From positions 1-64,000 of the forward strand of contig ML002210.1 of NCBI GenBank assembly GCA_003614675.1: 64,000 nt of DNA. The letters are read 5' to 3'. The position numbers and the translations under genes were made by a program. Shown here one piece after another: positions 1 through 15,455 of this stretch. The notes beneath the pieces are model-generated. The model saw nothing but the letters and a program-made list of their open reading frames with translations. It was not told the DNA's origin and searched no databases. The first letter of the stretch is position 1, and the number at the start of each line of letters is the position of its first letter. This DNA comes from Dimargaris cristalligena. Its lineage: Eukaryota.

Positions 1-121
1 TTTATTATCTATCTTTTCAAATAAAGTTCAGTTTTCAAGGATTTGATTTCAGTTCTTTACAGAGAATATAGGTGATTATTCAGCTAAAATTACTAGAGGC
101 TGGCTCAAACAGTTAGCCCCC

Positions 122-1125
122 AGTCTGATAGATCATCCAACTGTACTAAAGATCCTATCTAATAGTTTATCAAAGGCCACATGGAAGTCCTATGCCAGCC
201 ACAATTACCAATATCTTTAATTCTGTGAAAGGGCTGGGGTATTACCTCACCCCATCACTAATACCACTTTATTTCAATACTTTCTTCATCTATACACTGC
301 CCAAGTAAATTACCAGTCTGTACCTGGGAAGCTAGCCCCTTTAACTAAGTTTGATAAGATTATGTTCAGTGTGGCTCAATTTTCTAAAGATACAGTTACA
401 CAATCTTGTAAAAGGCATGCAGTACCACATTTTCAAGAGTTCCTAGGGTCAAAGGATCCCTATGGTGTACAGCAAATTCCATTACACTTCTTTACCCAGC
501 TGTATACCCCTAGGTGGTTATCTAATCCAGTGTAATTGGAATATGCAACCCTTTTCATCATTGGTATGGGAGAGGTTTAACTGAGCTGTATAACAAAAAA
601 TCCATTAGATAAAGCAAATATTACTGGTTAAAAATTAATCTCCCATATGCTTATTATTTAAAACCTTATACAACTGGGCCAAATTTCACATGTATTGTGT
701 TTGGCTGGTGGGTGAGTTTATTGGCAGCTTTACAATATCAAAACATGACCCTCCAGGATCACAGCCTATCAGTCTTTATCATTGGAGAAAAACAGAAAGC
801 TCATCTGGAGAGAGTCCATTGGGTAGCATGTCCCATTTGCCCGGGGTTCACAGCTATCATTAAATAATACCTATCCCAGATGGAGTCTGGGGTCCTTTGG
901 AAGACTTATAAGACAAACCCAGCTGCTTGGGCAACCCGGTGTCTTCAGGCTCTTCTGGTGTCCCTCAGATATCACTTAACCATTGCCTCTGAGTACTTGT
1001 CACATAGCTTGCAAAAAACAATGGTGGCTAGTATGTTGGCCACAAAGGTAGACCCATTGAGGGTGCTAGATTGGGGCTACTGGGATGATTTAGAGACTAT
1101 GTGGGCCTATTGCCGAATTAACTAA
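122..1125 (+). pseudogene. Degenerate tyrosine recombinase of a DIRS/Crypton-like transposon, interrupted by a MITE; element probably extends left of the window
   Basis: Frame from 122 reads SLSKATWKSY..YL*FCERAGVLPHP..LFQYFLHL (SAM-like N-domain). Excising 568-695 joins it in frame to LFIIGIVFGWWVSLLAALQ...K...YLSHSLQKTMVASML...LDWGYWDDLETMWAYCR, matching decayed R..K..HxxR..GxW..Y motifs. Three in-frame TAA stops; only about 4 CpG in the first 1200 nt. Confidence 0.8.
564..695. mobile_element. MITE copy 1 (internally deleted), inserted in the recombinase relic
   Basis: Clear similarity to the copies at 2881, 41725 and 47447; flanked on both sides by GTAT. Confidence 0.8.
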
Positions 1126-1755: not shown

Positions 1756-4002
1756 ATGCCAACCTCCATCCCCCAACCGGTGACCCTCGCCCCGGCCGAG
1801 GCCTACCTCATCACTGCCGTCCACACCGCTCTTTTTGTGGGCAGTCTGTACCTGTTCCGAACCAAAGAGCTGGCGCGCCTGTCCCGTAACCACCCGCGCG
1901 TCATTCGTCAGCGTATTGCAAGTGTCTCCTGCGCTATTCTCGCGAGTGCGGCGCTATCGGTCTATTTCCTGGCCGTCAAAAACCCGGCTGTGGATGTAAG
2001 TGCCCCCCCTTATAGAGCTTACTATGTATTATTCCCGACCGTACACTGCGGCTTTACCACCTTCTCCTTGTATCTTCGGGGTGACCCCGAGCCGGGAATC
2101 GGCGGTGTACCCTTTTTGGCAAATTCCTACTCTGCCTATATGCGCCATGGCCCAGTCCTTTGGTCATTCTTTAAAAAAAGTCATTTTTTTTACAGTTGCC
2201 ATACCCGCTGCTAATGCGAAATGTCTCAAACCGTATTCCAATGCATTGATGATTCCTTTAACCCGGGCCCAGTGGTCCGGTTTGCTCCGTTGGATTTTAG
2301 CTCAAAGTGGCTGTACAGTATCGCATATCCAATCGGGCGCTTCGTTGGGGCTCGGAGCCACCTTGACCCTATTTGCCGGGCCATTGTGGGTAGAGTACCT
2401 GAGTATGCGTCGATCTGGCTGTGGGTTGCGCTATTTCATGGGCGACATTGGCACTGTTTTCCGGGACATCGGCACATGGCGGGACATTATTTTGGTAGGT
2501 GATCCGGGACGGAACTTTGGTCAACCGCCACCACATAGCATCCGTGATCGTCGTCTGAACCAATTTATCGTGTATTATGTACCCTAATTCCACTAACTGA
2601 ATGGTGAATTACTCTCTACGCTTTCTTCTGTACCCCCCCCCCCCCAATAGGCACCTTTGTTTGAAGAAATAGTCTTCCGGGGCTTGGTGGTTGTTTTGTG
2701 GAAAGCGGCCGGTATTTCCGCAATAACCACTATATTTCTCTCCCCTCTTTTCTTTGGCATCAGTAAGTACCAAGTGGCCCGTAGACGGCACTCTATCCTT
2801 GGTTTAAACTTGCCTCGTCTAGGCTGTCGCTCTCTGGTAAACGATTGCGGTGTACTGGAGTTGCGCCAATTGAGTTTGACATATGGGAGAAGTTCATTCA
2901 GGCTGTATAATGAAAAATCCATTGGGTGAGGTCAATATTACTAGTTAAAAGCTATTCCCATATACATTTGCCGATACATGTATTATGTAAAACCTTATAC
3001 AGCTGGTTTGAATTTCATCCATATTGAACACCCCTCATTCACTATAGAAATCACCCCTTCTATTAGGGAGACCCCTTTTCGGAAGGTCCTGAATTAATCG
3101 TAAATCGGTGCTCACCATTATTGTATGATCCTTGCCAACCGCCCCCATGAACCCTTAGGTCACTTACATCATTCGGTAGAACGATATCAGACCACCCGTA
3201 GTTTGACTTACGCTCTCCTCGCACCAGGTAAAACTATAGTTGACGCCAAACTTGAACATGCCCCTTGGCTCAATCTTTTGCTAACGGGGAAGCCATGCCG
3301 GACTTGTATAACCCCAAATCCTAAAAAAATGAAATCAATTTACTAATCGATATTCAAGCTGTAGTTTCTACTCCTTGTCTTTCTTAACATAATTATAATT
3401 ATAATTATACATATAAACATTACAATACGCGCGAACCTGGAACAAAACCCGATCTTGTACACCCCCCACAGCCTTCCAAATGACTTACTCGTCTGTGTTT
3501 GGTTGGTTTGCCGTATACCTGCTATTAGCCACTGGTAAGTAACTGCAAGTCATCAACAATACCTTGGATACATGCATCAGGTCGATAAGATCCGCTCCCC
3601 TACCAGCCCCAATTCCTGCAGCAGTTAGGGGAAACGCAGCTTCTAATGAGTTATCCTGGACACCCCCCCCCCTTAAATTGGCGTTATAAAACCAGGCAAC
3701 TTGATTTCCCCGACTATAAGCCATGCCATCTGTAACACGATTGGACTGCCTGATATTGCCAAGGTTTCCGAATTCCCGGATCAAGAGCGAAGTAAGTCAG
3801 CCTAAGCCATACATATCTTTCTATACTATCGAAGCTTCCGAGTAGCTCTCTAATCACGCCAAAACACATGGATATATCGACTAATACGCAACTGTTGGCA
3901 ATGCCGCTCTTCAAATAACTTTTAGGCATATGGGCAGTTTATATAATTGGCATCCTTGGGTTTGTCAGTATCATTTATTATATTGGACTGCCAAATATAT
4001 AG
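1756..4002 (+). CDS. RCE1: CAAX prenyl protease 2 (Rce1/CPBP family), 7 exons
   Basis: Exons 1756-1995, 2273-2494, 2651-2762, 3159-3227, 3472-3534, 3696-3791 and 3926-4002 join in phase. Motifs: R-N-H-P-x-V-I-x-x-R, APLFEEIVFRG, FFGISHLHH, FQMTYSSVFGW, HAICNTIGLP. Confidence 0.9.
2881..3024. mobile_element. MITE copy 2, in RCE1 intron 3
   Basis: 144 bp with imperfect ~30 bp TIRs (ATATGGGAGAAGTTCA...TGAATTTCATCCATAT); 126/144 identical to the 41725 copy by hand alignment. Confidence 0.88.
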
Positions 4003-4626: not shown

Positions 4627-5172
4627 TCATTTATCGTCGGCGGAGGGTTTCTTAGTACCGTATTTTGAACGAGAAGAACCCCGGTTGGGTACACCCTGTA
4701 AATCGAGGGCCCCCCGAATAACATGGTAGCGTACACCGGGTAAATCGGGCACGCCGCCACCGCGGACTAGGACGACTGAGTGCTCCTGGAGGTTGTGGCC
4801 CTCGCCGGGAATGTAGGCGACGACGACCTCGCCGTTGGACAGGCGGACTCGGCATACCTTACGGACGGCAGAGTTGGGCTTCTTGGGCTTAGTAGTATAG
4901 ACTTTGACACACACGCCCTTCTTCTGGGGACAACCGTCCAGCTGAGGCGACTTGGAGATGTTGGGCCGGGTCTTACGGACACCACGTATGACCTGGTTGA
5001 GGGTGGCCATTGATTGTACAGACCCGAATTGGGGACGGAGAGTTGTATTACTGGAGACGGATCCAGAGTGGAGAGTGGGCCAGGCGGCACGGCCTCCTGC
5101 AGGCCGCGCGACCGATTGGACGAAAGGGGCAACACGGCCCCAGGAAGAAAGCGAACGCACAAGACCGAACAT
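4627..5172 (-). CDS. MRPS12: Mitochondrial ribosomal protein S12 (uS12m) with N-terminal presequence
   Basis: [43 protein letters not shown] and RSKYG; Arg/Ser-rich N-terminal extension; intronless. Confidence 0.95.
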
Positions 5173-5657
5173 GGCGAAATATAACTCAAGATAAATGGGG
5201 GGAAAAGGAAGCCGATCAATGCAGTATAGGTAGGAGGGACTTAGGAACGGAGGGCGAGCCGAATTACGAGAGATCTGCTACGAAACCTGACTGCATGGGG
5301 GGAAACAGCCAGGGCTGGTAGCTCATTCTAGATTGAAGACTAAGTGTAGGGCTGATTCCGACTGGACGCTGTAGTAGCTACTGGTTTGGTCAAGAATGTT
5401 ATGGGGGGGGCCTCTACTATGTACGCGGGGCAAATACTCCTTCCCCGTGGTACTTTATTTATCGGACCAGGCTTAAGTAAGCAATAATGGTGGGGGATAG
5501 GAAACTTAAAAAATTCATGGCTGTGTACAGAAAGCAATAGTTTTCACTGCTATTAGTTCGGTTCTATCTAAACCGTGAAGCACCCAACTGTCTCTGGTCT
5601 CCAGTATTTTCATTTTGTCCAAATAACTTTTTCCTCACCACCCCCCATAATACTACA

Positions 5658-7107
5658 ATGAGCAAGCGCATTCGGGACGACGCGGACCTGCCGCCCTCCG
5701 ACGAGGACGAGGAAATGGCCAGCTCGGGGTCGGGGTCCAGTGAGGGCGACGAGTCCGATCCGGACATGAAGGTACGCATTTCCCCCTTGGGGAGAGAGAG
5801 TCAGGACGGTTGGGCGAGAGGCAATATCAATAAGTAGCGGACATTGAAAGGGCGAACCTCTTGAGGCTGTGCTATGCTCTTTGCCTTACATTTTCGCGCC
5901 ATGTTTCACCTCAATGCAGTGCACTTGGCTTCTATTCGACTCAAGGCCACGGGCCTTTTCCATTATCCGTTCAACTTAAACTCGTTCGTTTTCTTATACG
6001 GTTTACTAATACTAACCAATGGGTCTGTTCTATATATATTAAAAAAAAACCTATTAATCCACGGCAACCTTAGGAAACCGTTGATGTGGACTTTGAATTC
6101 TTCGATCCTAAGGAGGGCGACTTCCACACCATCAAACGACTGCTTAGCCAACTCTTTGTCGAAGACAGCGAGAAAATGGATATATCCGGAATGACTGAGC
6201 TGATTATCCAGCAACCCCTTATCGGCACCTGCGTTAAAGTAGAGAACGATGGCGATCCATACGCCCTTCTGACGGTACTCAATATGCAGCAGCACGCCGA
6301 GCAAAACGCCATCAAGAAGCTGCGGAACTACTTGCTGCACAAGGCCCGTAGCTCCCCCAAAGCCAAGGACCTCTTGAGCAAACTCCTGGATCCGGCTAGT
6401 AAAAAGGCCGTTGGCTTTGTCTTGAGTGAACGGCTGGTCAATGTACCGCCCCAGATCACACCACCCATGTTCCGCATGCTGGCTGAGGAGATCCAATGGG
6501 CGGTGGAAGATGTAAGTTGATGCATTCATATATATATATATATATATATTATTATTATAGTATGGTTTTGTACCAAGGGGTATAGGGAGTGGCAGTGACC
6601 CTGTGACTGGTTCGCAAATGGCAGGGGTATTCCCTATACCAGGTCTATTTTAATTTTATGGTATCTATACTGTACGCTTAGACTAATCCCTGTGGCTGTT
6701 TTGGTGTGGGTATTCGTTAATATGGGGGATTGCCTGTAAATGCATTATAGAAAGAACCCTACGAATTCGAATACTATATTCTTATTTCGAAAACGTACCG
6801 CCAAGTGGAGTCTTCACTCGATGTGGATGACGAGGAAGAGACGCCGGCGGCCAAATCCGCCAAGGATAAGGGCCGCAAGAAGGGCCGGTTTGCGGACGCG
6901 GTCTTTTACATGCAACCGGAGGAGGAGTTCGTGGAGCAATTTGCGCAGATTTCCTTCGATTTCCGGCTATCAAAAGAGTCGGGGGTATCGGATAGCAAAC
7001 GGACTTTCAACGAGTTCGGGATTGCCCCCAGTCGTCGGTGCTTTATCATTGCCAAAGACAAAATGGAGGAGTTCGTGAAAGGACTGGAGTCTTTTGTCCT
7101 AGGATAA
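5658..7107 (+). CDS. BCP1: Bcp1/BCCIP ribosome biogenesis (uL14 chaperone) protein, 3 exons
   Basis: Exons 5658-5771, 6074-6511 and 6751-7107. Acidic N-terminus; VDVDFEFFDP..DFHTIKRLLSQLF, GFVLSERLVNVP, YILISKTY, QPEEE. Confidence 0.92.
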
Positions 7108-7991
7108 TTATTGATCCGATTACTTTTGTTCTATTTCCCATTGGGGTTATTTCACTGAACCAGAATAGCTCGCCCTTAATATCACCCGGAAGAAAGGATA
7201 CTGATATATATATATAGTTACAGTGATCATTTAGCCATCGGCCAATTATTATTTATAATTGATAAACTAGAGGCTTGGTTAAGCTATGGATGCGGAAAGA
7301 CAGGGGAGGGCTCTCGAAAGTGGAAATGGATTGGCACCACAGGGGGGGTGATGGGGCTCTGCGTCAATAGCAGAGAGGAGTTTAGGTTAATCCCATGGAT
7401 TTTAGTGCGGAACCGTTTATACTGTCAGGAGGGGGGGTCTCCCACGGCAGACCAAGGCTGGCTGCTATTTGCTCGTTAGTAATGGCAGGTAGACCTCCCC
7501 AAGTCACGCCCCGCCATAATAAGTGAGGTATATATTTACATATATAAACATTAGTAGAAGTTACTTACTGCCCTAAATCCCCGATTACCGGGCTATTAAA
7601 AGATATTGTATATTGATAGTTCCCAATAATAGAATACATTCCATACTCCCAAGGTAAAATCTTTTAAAAAAACGGCACATTGGGAGGGGATAGCGGCGAT
7701 TGTGCTGACCCTAGTCCTTCGGCATTCCTGTTCCCATCTATTTATAACGCCTGGTTTTACGGCGGAGTGGGGCGATAGTGATAGGCCGGCTGCCACTGTA
7801 GATTGCCCTCCCGCCTGCCTGTTTTGAGTCTCCGCAAGTGTGCGCCTCCTCCCCGGCTGTATTTAACCATTGATGCGCTCCGTCGCGCTGTGAGCTGCAT
7901 ATATCCCTCTCCCGCTCGCTGTATCTTCAACACTCCGTCTTTCTTCCCGCTCTTGCCTTTCTCCAGATTACATTCCTCCTTTGCTTAATTG

Positions 7992-8119
7992 GTAAGTCCC
8001 TATCGAGTCTTACGCGAACCCGTGCGTTTCTCGGTTGCATTCCTCACCCTCAAGTCCTTTAGCCTGGCAGCACTAACCGAGAGTTGGCGACACTACTTCT
8101 CTCTCCTACTCCCCGCCAG
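7992..8119 (+). other. Probable 5'UTR intron of the CBA1-like gene
   Basis: GTAAGT donor at 7992, CACTAAC branch at 8071-8077, pyrimidine tract, CAG acceptor at 8119; ATG at 8160. Confidence 0.7.
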
Positions 8120-8159: not shown

Positions 8160-9963
8160 ATGCCTCGACTGGCCCACGTTTTGCTTGCCGGTCTGGCCCT
8201 GTTCGCCGTTGCCCGCTCGGACGACTTTTGTAATGGCGACCCCGACAAGGATAACTTTCCCGACAAAATCGTAGTTGGTAAGTGAAGGGCGGACTGCTGG
8301 TGTTGTATATAGAATTATTCTGACCGTTCCGATAAAGTCCCCCCCGCTGATATTCTTTTGAGGGCTCCGCTGGCTTCCATTGCCACCTTGTGACCTTCTA
8401 CTTTGCCCGCATGTATCATCCACCAACTCAATCTTACTCTCTTCCGTTGTATCACCCGGTACGGCTTCTTGGTCCCGCCCTATCTAGGCTCGTCGTCCAA
8501 TTTCACCATCTCGTACAGCAATAATTACAAAATCCTGACCAACCAAATTGCCGGCGAGGCCTATGGTCTGTACTGTGGCTCCGACCGGCCCTCGGCACCG
8601 GGCAAAATCAAGGCTTGGTTCCAGGTCCCCATCACCTCGGTGGCTGTGCTGGATCGCACCCTCGTGCCCTATCTAGAGGTAAATCCGCCCTTCTATTTAT
8701 TTACATGGTATTCGGGATAGACCATCGAGTTCTTGTCCCCCCTATCCAGTAGAATACATTGAAGGGGCTGCTTCTCTTTTTTTTTCTCACCCCCCTCCCC
8801 CGGTTGTCTTTTGTATTACCCGGCCCGCTTATCTCTTATCCTTCCGCCAGGCGCTCAAACTCACATCGACCATAAAAATAGTCCAGGACCCCCAAAACGT
8901 CACATCACCCTGTGTACAGTCACTACTTAGCGATGGTTCGGCCAAGTCCCAGGCCAGTGCCTCGGCTGACGACTGGGCCCCCGTTCAGGTGGCCTTCACC
9001 AACACTTACTCCAATGATTCGTCCTACGTGGCCTTCTCCGCCTCGAATGACCACCTCTACCCCCTAGAGAAGGCCGAATGGATCAAGTTTATTTCGGTCT
9101 TCTTCAACGCCGAAGGCAACGCCACAGAATTCTACCAACACGTCAACGCCCAATACGATTGCCACACCAACAACATCGCCAAGGTGAACAAGCAACAAAT
9201 CGCCTGGAGCCAGTCTGGTAAGGACCTCGAGACGGGCGATGATTTCTGGACTCTGCAGAGTAATGCCTACGTAGAGCGGCTGACCTCCGATGCCGGTGGC
9301 CATCTCGTTAGTTCCAGCTCCGGTGTCACGAACGATACGTCGCGGTTCCAAACCGATGTCGCTACCGCCAATTTCGTCGTCGACCAGACCGACGTAGGTA
9401 CGGGCACGATGTCCTTCGATGGGTGGCTAAAGACCTTCGGCTATTCGGAAGACCCCAAATCCACGGACAATTCTTTCTACTTCCAGAAGCAGGTCTGGCG
9501 AACTGACAAGCTGCGCAACCAATACAACAATTACGACTGGGGCCAAACCTCGTTCGCCCGCCCCGATCTGGCCCTGGCTGACCTCATTACCATGCAGTAT
9601 CCCAAGTACCACGGTAAAATTGACGACGCGGCCAATCTGCAGTGGATGAATAATCTGGCCCAGCCCCAGGATATCGTTCGGCAGGGTTCCGCCTCGTGCG
9701 ACAAGACCCCTCTGGTCTCCACCTTCCCCCAGTGCCCCTCGTCCCCCAATCTGACCCTGCGGGACGAGTCGTCGTCGTCGTCGGACGGACTCAACGGGGC
9801 CCGGATTGCCGGCATTGTAATCGGATCGGTAGCCGGCCTGGTTTTGCTTGGGATCCTTTACGTCTTCTTGGCCCGTCGACGCCGTCGCCAGCGGCTCCAG
9901 GAATTCATCAACCTACGCAACCGCAACAGCGGTGAGTTGGACGATCAGCGTGAAGCCATGTAA
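8160..9963 (+). CDS. Type I membrane protein with a periplasmic-binding-protein (BtuF/CBA1-like) ectodomain, ~473 aa, 3 coding exons
   Basis: Exons 8160-8277, 8488-8678 and 8851-9963. Signal peptide; FTISYSNNYKIL, VPYLEAL, TSPC, PLEKAEWIKFISVFFNAE, DW..S..RPDLALADLI; C-terminal TM helix followed by RRRRR. Confidence 0.8.
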
Positions 9964-13576: not shown

Positions 13577-14773
13577 TTAATTGGGCTGGTCAGGGGAGTC
13601 CAGCCGATTCTGCTCCATGATCTTAAGGAATACCAGCATTGTGTAATGGGCGTCGTTTCCTAAATGCGGGTAAAGGGTCAGAGTTTCATAAATTCAATAA
13701 ACAATCAAGGCCGAAACCATGCGTATACGAGTTAGAGTGGAAGGCTGCGTATCGTTGGGAATCAGGGACGCAGCCAAACTGGTCTAGAGAAAATACAAAG
13801 ACATATCGGGCAGCATTGACTTACCGGCATTATGAAGATGGGAATATTCAATGCCCAGTTCCTCGAGTAGAATAGCCAGGCGACGTCCGTTGCGGGGGTT
13901 CTTGGTGTGTGCGCAGTACAGAGCCTTGGTGTCGAGGCGGGGCACGGAATGGTGCAAATGCATATCCTCGGATTTCAAGAATTTGATGTCGCTTGCCACG
14001 TCGTGGCCTAGAAAGGCAATGGGATAGGCTTTGGTAACGGCCGCATGAAGTTCCATCAGACCTTCGTAACGGGGCATGACCTGGGATTTGCCGAAGTTGA
14101 AGCGGTGCTTATTATCGGCCACAAAGCGGCCGTTGTATAGTTTGATGGTCTCCTTGATAATAATATGGCGCGTGGTAATTTGGCGGGTTACGGGATCGTA
14201 CATGCACCAGCCCACTTCGGTGAGCTTGTTTTGGTCGTGTTCGTAGGCCTCAATGTCTAAACACAAGATGGTGTGCTTGCCGTCATCGACCATCTTAAGA
14301 GTGTTTTTCAAGAGGCTACGGTAACCAGCCAGCTGCTGCTCGCTAACCACAGGGGGGTTATCAGGGTTGGGCCGGGGCTTTTTCTGGCTCGAATTCTTAT
14401 CCTTGCCATCGCAGGCCTTGGCTGACCGGCCGGGGGCCTTCCCCGTAGAGTCGGTCTTGCGGTCCGCTTTGGAGGCAGGCGAATCGGGACCCTGGGTCTT
14501 GAGGATACGTTTGGTGGACGGTCGGTTGACCTTGGACGCGACCCGTTTCGAGTTGCCTGGACCAGGGGTAACGGCGGCTTTGTTAGGATTAGGTTGGCAT
14601 CCCATGGCGACTTTCGACTTTCTGGATCGACTAGCGGTTTGAGTGAACCAATGCAAAGGATCCCGAATGGCCAAGGGTAATGGAACAACGGGGGTCAAGG
14701 GGGTGAAAAGGGGATACAGGCGGAATAGACGGAGAGTGGAGGTTGATAGTAGAGGTAGTAAGGCACAGCGCAT
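13577..14773 (-). CDS. Gfd2/YDR514C-like (QIP-related) DEDDh exonuclease-fold protein, paralog A
   Basis: Exons 14773-13825 and 13659-13577. CLDIEAYE..LTEVGW, NGRFV..FNFGKS, LGHD..SDIKFL, DTKALY, LHNAG|NDAHYT. Start is 14773 or 14605. Confidence 0.85.
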
Positions 14774-15455
14774 AACTCCAGGACGGTAGACTGACTTCGT
14801 TGCGGGGCAATGCGCGGACTGAGGGACCCTCGCTTATTTATACATGGAAAATAAAAACAGATACAACCTATCTAAGTAAAAAGAGCTAATGTCAAACCCG
14901 CGGAATGGAAGATGGAGAACCCCGGGCAATGGGAGGGAGGAAGGCGCCTCCCACACCCTTCTTTGTATCAGGAAGAGAAAAAAAATAGAGGAGGACAAAT
15001 CAACCACACATATTGGTCGTCGTCAACTGGACGAGAGAGCTGAAGAGGGGGCGTGAAACGAAGCGCAGACGGAACAAACCAGTAGCTGGACCAGGGGGCC
15101 AATCCCTGATTATCGACCTTCCCCTATCCTTTATCAAAACCCTTCAACCTTCCTGCTACTAGCTCGACATCTCGCTGTCCAATGTTGAGCCTCTCGCCTT
15201 ACAAACAAAATACTTCAAGAATGCTACACTTTCCTTCAGTTTTGTAGGTCATCCAATTTATGTAAGTGTATTTTTTTAGGGGATTAATTCAAGAAAACAA
15301 TGGAAAAATGACTCCAAGGCGGGGGCGGGTCGCCATGGTCAGTGTGCTTTGGAAGCCGCTGTTTCAGAATAGGGACGGAATACTAGATGGCCGAGGCTAG
15401 AAGGAGGGGGGGGGGGACTTCGGGCCACTACTATTTGGGCGGTCCACCGTGGAGA

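Follow-up and report, generated by a model that had tools for sequence, protein, structure and literature searches.

The locus and its predicted protein

The window analysed here is a 64,000-nucleotide stretch of Dimargaris cristalligena DNA (positions 1 to 64,000 of contig ML002210.1, GenBank assembly GCA_003614675.1), and the subject of this study is a gene with three exons on its forward strand at 8160-9963. The joined exons 8160-8277, 8488-8678 and 8851-9963 are open throughout without an internal stop. Their translation is identical to H4R33_003271, a hypothetical protein of D. cristalligena with 473 amino acids (label P0002). Orthologues are found in four other Dimargaritales (Tieghemiomyces, Dimargaris verticillata and two Dispira) with 45-55% identity and E-values of 1e-92 to 1e-122, and they align across both exon junctions. 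The AlphaFold2 model of the protein also has a high predicted local distance difference test score (pLDDT) over both junctions. The locus is confirmed as a genuine protein-coding gene.

H4R33_003271 is predicted to be a type I membrane glycoprotein, composed of a signal peptide, an ectodomain, one transmembrane (TM) helix and a basic tail (Table 1). The ectodomain of about 380 residues contains six N-x-S/T sequons and six cysteines, which is fitting for a protein of the secretory pathway. An earlier reading of the same DNA, referred to below as the original prediction, had described a signal peptide, an ectodomain with YK, SPC, PLEKAEWIKFISVFFNAE and RPD motifs, a single TM helix and a basic tail, and all of these elements are present. 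The YK motif is located at residues 53-54 and SPC at 122-124, and DWGQT at 332-336 is followed by ARPDLALADL at 339-348.

The AlphaFold2 model was built with a 50-sequence alignment and has a mean pLDDT of 90.7 and a predicted template modelling score of 0.82. Two alpha/beta lobes are joined by a 21-residue helix (residues 191-211), and a long C-terminal helix begins at residue 419. A Foldseek search with the model gave 159 matches in the PDB at E<=0.001, led by CeuE (9.5e-9); an iron-complex binding protein of Eubacterium eligens (4hn9) and two heme binders, ShuT and PhuT, are also among the best. Structural alignment with VIA-align gave Z-scores of 18.1 for 4hn9_B (273 residues, root-mean-square deviation 3.6), 17.4 for YiuA, 16.8 for CeuE and 16.0 for the heme-binding PhuT. 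These alignments extend over about 245-275 residues and cover model residues 41-378, and the 50 class III structures listed have Z-scores of 15-18. The ectodomain is thus modelled as a class III (helical-backbone) binding-protein fold, the feature on which the original prediction had staked its case beforehand.

Comparisons of the sequence with family profiles are less direct. Pfam PF01497 does not match exon 3 at E<=1 nor H4R33_003271 at E<=0.01. Six of 15 aligned relatives do match it (best 1.3e-27), so the homology of H4R33_003271 to PF01497 is only transitive. A fungal-weighted profile found a single weak match among PDB sequences, which is again 4hn9 (E 0.0073). The original prediction had also called for a profile check against BtuF, and this one was negative: the NCBIfam BtuF model NF002894 (cut-off 234 bits) has no match in H4R33_003271, and the bacterial relatives reach 19-25 bits. 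Scanned directly against Pfam and NCBIfam, the protein gave only weak look-alikes of the TM segment, and a phmmer search of exon 3 against PDB sequences returned only TM-helix matches. Both results were set aside.

Table 1. Features of the H4R33_003271 gene, in window positions (nt) and protein residues (aa).
Feature	Position	Strand	Remarks
Exon 1	8160-8277	+	ATG at 8160; codons 1-39 and first base of codon 40
Signal-peptide-like hydrophobic N-terminus MPRLAHVLLAGLALFAVA	nt 8160-8216, aa 1-19	+	In exon 1; model helix 2-23
Intron 1	8278-8487	+	210 nt, phase 1, GTAAGT...TAG
Exon 2	8488-8678	+	aa 40-103; first N-lobe strands, YK 53-54, QVPI 85-88
Intron 2	8679-8850	+	172 nt, phase 0, GTAAAT...CAG
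Exon 3	8851-9963	+	aa 104-473, stop TAA 9961-9963; remaining ectodomain, TM helix, tail
Predicted class III (helical-backbone) binding-protein fold	8490-9675, aa ~41-378	+	Structural matches; intron 2 splits the span
Motif PLEKAEWIKFISVFFNAE	9061-9114, aa 174-191	+	Best-conserved family motif; corresponds to CrCBA1 E206, F214, F215, N216, E218
Long inter-lobe backbone helix	9112-9174, aa 191-211	+	DSSP of the model
Motif DWGQTSFARPDLALADL	9535-9585, aa 332-348	+	W333, G334, Q335, D347 correspond to CrCBA1 W394, F395, E396, D408; F and E replaced
Predicted transmembrane helix	9799-9873, aa ~420-444	+	Hydropathy; model helix from 419; resemblance to single-pass TM segments
Predicted cytosolic tail RRRRRQRLQEFINLRNRNSGELDDQREAM	9874-9960, aa 445-473	+	Starts with an R run; FINL at aa 455-458 (nt 9904-9915)

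Kinship with CBA1 and two fungal groups

CBA1 is needed for vitamin B12 uptake in Chlamydomonas and Phaeodactylum, in which knockouts abolish uptake (Sayer et al. 2023, PMC10828217). The same paper reports CBA1 homologues in fungi, some of them alongside METH, and proposes a B12-uptake test of fungal CBA1. It lists 16 conserved residues of the Chlamydomonas protein CrCBA1, from K78 to D408, and proposes a B12 pocket cluster formed by W255, W394, F395 and E396. We made the comparison by proxy, using the chlorophyte Micractinium protein P0236 and the published residue list in place of the sequences of CrCBA1 and the Phaeodactylum protein PtCBA1. P0236 has all 16 listed residues in order. A BLASTP alignment of H4R33_003271 with P0236 has an E-value of 5e-26 and 25% identity over 410 columns, and it spans the entire ectodomain. 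For reference, the hidden Markov model threshold for CBA1 homologues in Sayer et al. 2023 (PMC10828217) is E<=1e-20, and the two experimentally validated proteins CrCBA1 and PtCBA1 share 27.8% identity with an E-value of 1e-14 (Dorrell et al. 2024). Of the 16 residues, 12 are retained in H4R33_003271. The four changes are a conservative one, V253 to I, and the replacements of P251 by Q218, F395 by G334 and E396 by Q335. In the tree described below, all eukaryotic rows form one clade against the bacterial rows with a support of 100. By these sequence comparisons H4R33_003271 is assigned to the eukaryotic CBA1 family, as the original prediction had proposed.

The family itself is large. A profile of 15 relatives, searched against a library of 1.84 billion proteins, found 5219 representative proteins at E<=0.001, of which 1491 reach E<=1e-30. 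The original prediction had taken its motifs as marks of bacterial B12 and iron-chelate binding proteins and of algal CBA1. For B12 and iron-chelate binders in general this did not hold; the motifs mark one bacterial subfamily and the eukaryotic CBA1 family. Four cysteines, C124, C207, C386 and C398, are kept across the eukaryotic members (C124 in 152 of 158) and occur in none or one of 69 bacterial relatives. The cysteine of the SPC motif is specific to eukaryotes, with 0 of 69 bacterial relatives having it. These eukaryote-specific cysteines point to disulfides gained on the move into the eukaryotic secretory pathway. In addition, some family representatives (P0027-P0030, P0047, P0053 and P0060) are 900-1500 residues long and carry two to four CBA1-like domains in tandem, with a C-terminal hydrophobic segment.

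Our analysis adds a division of the fungal relatives into two groups. A search seeded with the 'DWFES' representative P0059 returned 84 proteins, and the named matches come from Endogone, Glomeromycotina, Mortierellomycotina, Mucorales, Umbelopsis, Sorochytrium and Gonapodya, together with Micractinium and Catharanthus. The nearest Atlas clusters of P0059 are from Mucoromycota and Chlorophyta, and those of H4R33_003271 are from Zoopagomycota and Mucoromycota, in outline agreement with the tree described next. A tree of 83 rows, rooted on 11 bacterial rows, was calculated by quick maximum likelihood under LG+G4 without a mixture model and with support from the Shimodaira-Hasegawa-like approximate likelihood ratio test (SH-aLRT) only. 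Its deep order is insecure, as the search was short, several rows deviate in composition and one pair of long branches was flagged. Fungal group A comprises 21 rows with a support of 99, and group B comprises 35 rows with a support of 93 (98 for an inner set of 29 rows). H4R33_003271 is found in group B with Coemansia, Calcarisporiella, Radiomyces, one Umbelopsis protein and the second copies of Jimgerdemannia and Ambispora gerdemannii. No Zoopagomycota protein of group A is among the 84 matches of P0059. No Dikarya (Ascomycota or Basidiomycota) are among the organism-named fungal family matches listed, and this fits a link of the family to B12 use, which Dikarya are said to lack (Orlowska et al. 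2021, PMC8085122).

The two groups bear on the DWGQT motif of H4R33_003271. Its deviation from a DW(F/Y)ES-type motif, pointed out in the original prediction, is real. The shifted ligand that was read from it is weakly founded, because the glutamate column is variable across fungi: only 35 of the 77 members of group A and 22 of the 50 members of group B have E there.

The C-termini separate the two groups. We assigned 249 proteins to group profiles and counted those of at most 650 residues with a hydrophobic C-terminal segment. In group A, 60 of 62 proteins stop within 5 residues past this segment and none of the 62 has 15 or more further residues, whereas 45 of 46 group B proteins carry at least 15. 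The tails of group B consist of a basic stretch followed by a short motif [FYW]xx[LM], for example FINL, FVEL, FIEM or FYKM, and FINL is its local form in H4R33_003271. This motif is present in 30 of 46 group B tails, and still in 26 of 42 when four of the five Dimargaritales are left out. Shuffled tails contain it in 6.8 cases on average (standard deviation 2.3, maximum 15 in 2000 shuffles), compared with the 30 observed. Among the Dimargaritales the tail is 56-93% identical, as against 49-55% for the ectodomain. We conjecture that [FYW]xx[LM] is a candidate sorting signal. A literature search, which did not extend to the supplements of Sayer et al., found no description of either the fungal split or the tail motif, and both are added by this analysis.

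Bacterial relatives and the permease-docking glutamates

The nearest relatives in bacteria resemble lipoproteins, are about 375-410 residues long and carry the same motif set, and they occur in Bacteroidota, Chloroflexota and Cyanobacteria. NCBIfam scans of these proteins gave weak matches to IsdE (heme) and BtuF, far under the cut-offs. A profile of this bacterial sister subfamily matches the IsdE-like structure 4m7o (8e-10), IsdE 2q8p (4.9e-9) and BtuF (5.5e-7) in the PDB.

A genome scan gave at least 602 bacterial loci, and 80 were kept. From these, 32 loci, chosen for full flanks and taxonomic spread, were scanned for Rfam families. A cobalamin riboswitch is located within 4 kb of the gene in 14 of the 32 loci; the background is 21 riboswitches in 21.1 Mb from five genomes. 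The riboswitch lies upstream on the strand of the gene in seven loci (L040, L039, L062, L063, L051, L024 and L053) and divergently just upstream in eight (L043, L039, L050, L056, L044, L058, L068 and L076), with both arrangements in L039. A gene for a FecCD permease follows just downstream in all four bacterial loci inspected, and in three of them an ATP-binding cassette (ABC) ATPase gene comes next. One of the four loci also contains a divergent TonB-dependent receptor gene, and one contains CobN. In L020, which is of Bacteroidales type, the FecCD gene is present and no riboswitch is found even at a permissive threshold. Because of the riboswitches in 14 of 32 loci and the FecCD and ATPase neighbours, a large part of the bacterial sister subfamily, not demonstrably all of it, is assigned as the binding subunit of an ABC importer for corrinoids.

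Three of these loci have further features. In L039, two cobalamin riboswitches stand back to back at 3352-3556 (-) and 3680-3887 (+) in the intergenic region upstream of the binding-protein gene, which suggests divergent B12-regulated operons. In the Chloroflexus locus L063, a DUF7676 gene (7496-8095, E 3.9e-75) comes after the riboswitch-linked genes for binding protein, FecCD and ATPase, and DUF7676 may be part of corrinoid uptake or salvage. In the Fulvivirga locus L050, a DUF5074 protein is encoded at 564-1652 downstream of a divergent, riboswitch-controlled TonB-dependent receptor gene and may be an accessory protein for B12 capture at the surface.

Class III binding proteins dock on their permease via two Glu-Arg salt bridges, described as indispensable, and in BtuF these involve Glu74 and Glu202, which pair with Arg56 of BtuC (PMC3741162). 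In the bacterial relatives, two glutamates at positions 147 and 283 (P0017 numbering) are invariant in 69 of 69 sequences. Their match to Glu74 and Glu202 of BtuF is approximate, since it was obtained by position arithmetic on a profile match. The glutamate at position 283, in the C-lobe, is found in none of the 158 eukaryotic members and is a glutamine in H4R33_003271. The glutamate at position 147 is retained in 30 of the 77 members of group A and in 11 of the 31 classed as 'green/other'. The region around it is shortened in group B, where 26 of 50 sequences have a gap. As far as this approximate mapping goes, the loss of the invariant C-lobe glutamate throughout suggests that eukaryotic CBA1 proteins cannot dock on a permease of the BtuC type. 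This gives indirect support to the original prediction that the protein acts without a cognate ABC permease.

Ligand and route of uptake

D. cristalligena is listed with one MetH, one methylmalonyl-CoA mutase, one MeaB, one epimerase, one CblD and two adenosyltransferases in Table S1 of Orlowska et al. 2021 (PMC8085122). The same row gives zero for CblC and for class II ribonucleotide reductase, and the paper describes LMBR1-like proteins as universal in Opisthokonta. The original prediction had made its case depend on B12-dependent enzymes in the genome, and this table lists them for the species. Because MetH and methylmalonyl-CoA mutase are credited to D. cristalligena, we regard B12 capture without an ABC permease, combined with tail-mediated sorting, as the best reading of H4R33_003271, and our confidence in it is evenly balanced. 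What the protein binds and where it carries its cargo after capture are inferred. Judged by family kinship, the ectodomain would capture a corrinoid (vitamin B12) in the cleft between its lobes at the cell surface. It would act without docking to an ABC permease of the BtuCD type, the invariant bacterial glutamate being lost. The loaded receptor would then be sorted or internalised through its tail, and the vitamin would feed MetH and methylmalonyl-CoA mutase. A bolder version, which we hold to be possible and rather doubtful, is that group B as a whole is an innovation of the fungi. A B12-binding domain of bacterial type would have lost its docking surface for the permease and gained a TM helix and a short tail with a conserved, sorting-like F-x-x-L/M signal, and it would work as a self-contained endocytic cobalamin receptor, the sole family member for this job in Kickxellomycotina.

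Several observations weigh against B12 capture by H4R33_003271. The nearest solved structures to its model bind siderophores, iron chelates or heme, and BtuF is absent among the 50 Foldseek and VIA-align matches listed. This absence is uninformative on the ligand, as the rank of a fold within class III does not tell ligands apart. In the pocket cluster only two of four residues are kept, with F395 changed to G334 and E396 to Q335, and P251 is changed to Q218 as well. H4R33_003271 lies outside group A, the fungal clade nearest to the chlorophyte sequences. It is placed in a paralogue clade, and therefore its function may have diverged. In the bacterial sister subfamily, 18 of the 32 loci are without a riboswitch within 4 kb, among them 13 of Bacteroidales type, to which the nearest relatives of the bacterial query belong. 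The loss of docking is read through a glutamate mapping that is itself approximate. As for the tail, a classical tyrosine-based sorting motif has Y, and the group B motif mostly has F at this position. Furthermore, land plants retain CBA1 homologues without any B12-dependent enzyme according to Sayer et al. (PMC10828217), so that membership in the family is no proof of a B12 ligand.

A rival reading keeps the fold and the family and assumes another ligand. Here group B would capture heme or another tetrapyrrole, a siderophore or a metal chelate from the host fungus or the environment, and we consider this unlikely, if well short of negligible. The top structural matches are binders of siderophores, iron chelates and heme, the bacterial sister profile fits IsdE-like heme binders slightly better than BtuF, and the columns of F395 and E396, both replaced in H4R33_003271, are variable in group B. 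The plants cited above would be a precedent for keeping the family without B12 use. Mucoromycota hold both groups, with Jimgerdemannia and Ambispora gerdemannii each having both, and this fits a division of labour between paralogues. Against another ligand, B12 uptake is the role of the only members characterised by experiment, in the algal work cited, the bacterial sister group is linked to cobalamin riboswitches, and the named fungal matches are confined to lineages reported as B12 users. If the lack of Zoopagomycota group A proteins among the 84 matches is a genuine absence, group B would also be the only candidate of the family for a B12 receptor in Dimargaris.

A surface role other than uptake, as a sensor, in adhesion or host recognition by this haustorial mycoparasite, or as a scavenger that sequesters its ligand, appears improbable to us. 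The single-pass topology and the strongly conserved cytosolic tail could serve signalling rather than sorting, and the permease-docking glutamate is lost. On the other hand, group B is also present in saprotrophs and symbionts (Calcarisporiella, Radiomyces, Umbelopsis, Ambispora and Jimgerdemannia), so it is not tied to mycoparasitism. The tail has only 29 residues with no signalling domain recognisable in Pfam scans, and the motifs that line the cleft remain conserved. Delivery of the ligand to a membrane ABC importer by a conventional substrate-binding subunit is an option raised for algal CBA1 (PMC10828217), and it corresponds to the FecCD permease gene adjoining the binding-protein gene in all four inspected bacterial loci. 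For H4R33_003271 it is highly improbable in our judgement, as all 158 eukaryotic members lack the invariant C-lobe glutamate and group B has a shortened region at the N-lobe glutamate.

If group B does work as the self-contained endocytic receptor of the bolder version, it would be a third entry route of B12 into eukaryotic cells beside animal cubilin/CD320 and algal CBA1. Use of B12 by early-diverging fungi has been recognised only recently, and H4R33_003271 is a concrete candidate for their uptake route. Hypotheses on vitamin import without a permease are narrowed by the split between tail-less proteins and those that have a tail behind a TM helix, by the motif conserved in that tail and by the loss of the docking glutamate. 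The riboswitch link in bacteria supports a corrinoid ligand in the wider family, independently of the algal genetics. The gain is incremental, since a role of fungal CBA1 in B12 uptake has already been suggested in print (PMC10828217).

The surroundings of the gene were dropped as functional evidence, the neighbours being housekeeping genes without a link to B12. The flanking frames at 4627-5277 (-), 6751-7107 (+) and 13784-14833 (-) correspond to ribosomal protein S12/S23, BCCIP and a DEDDh exonuclease-like C-terminal domain.

H4R33_003271 can be compared with four known systems. With Escherichia coli BtuF it shares the predicted class III helical-backbone fold and, presumably, a ligand position in the cleft between the lobes. 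BtuF differs in being soluble and periplasmic, and it docks on BtuC via Glu74 and Glu202, of which the equivalent invariant glutamate, as far as the approximate mapping goes, is missing in H4R33_003271. The bacterial PF01497 sister subfamily has the fold and the motifs YK, PLGRAEWIKF..FFNKE, DAG and D(F/Y)WES..RPDL.L.D. In contrast to the fungal protein, its members have the two invariant glutamates, adjoin FecCD and ABC ATPase genes, have a glycine in the column of CrCBA1 W255 and are without the eukaryote-type cysteines, the TM helix and the tail.

Fungal group A, known from Endogone, Glomeromycotina, Mortierellomycotina, Mucorales, Umbelopsis and Sorochytrium, has the same cysteine pattern and has likewise lost the C-lobe glutamate. 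It differs in keeping DWF(E/x)S and in ending as a glycosylphosphatidylinositol signal or a tail anchor would, and it is nearer to the chlorophyte sequences (34% identity versus 25% for H4R33_003271). CBA1 itself (Chlamydomonas Cre02.g081050, Phaeodactylum Phatr3_J48322) resembles H4R33_003271 in its signal peptide, its BtuF-like class III fold and its C-terminal membrane anchor. Besides the 12 of 16 shared residues, the spacing in the AEW...FFNxE and W...D blocks is exact, and the host has B12-dependent enzymes, for Dimargaris according to the published table. The fungal protein differs from CBA1 in its separate paralogue clade, in its G, Q and Q in place of F395, E396 and P251, and in having a true TM helix, as predicted, with a motif-bearing tail of 29 residues in place of a hydrophobic extreme C-terminus.

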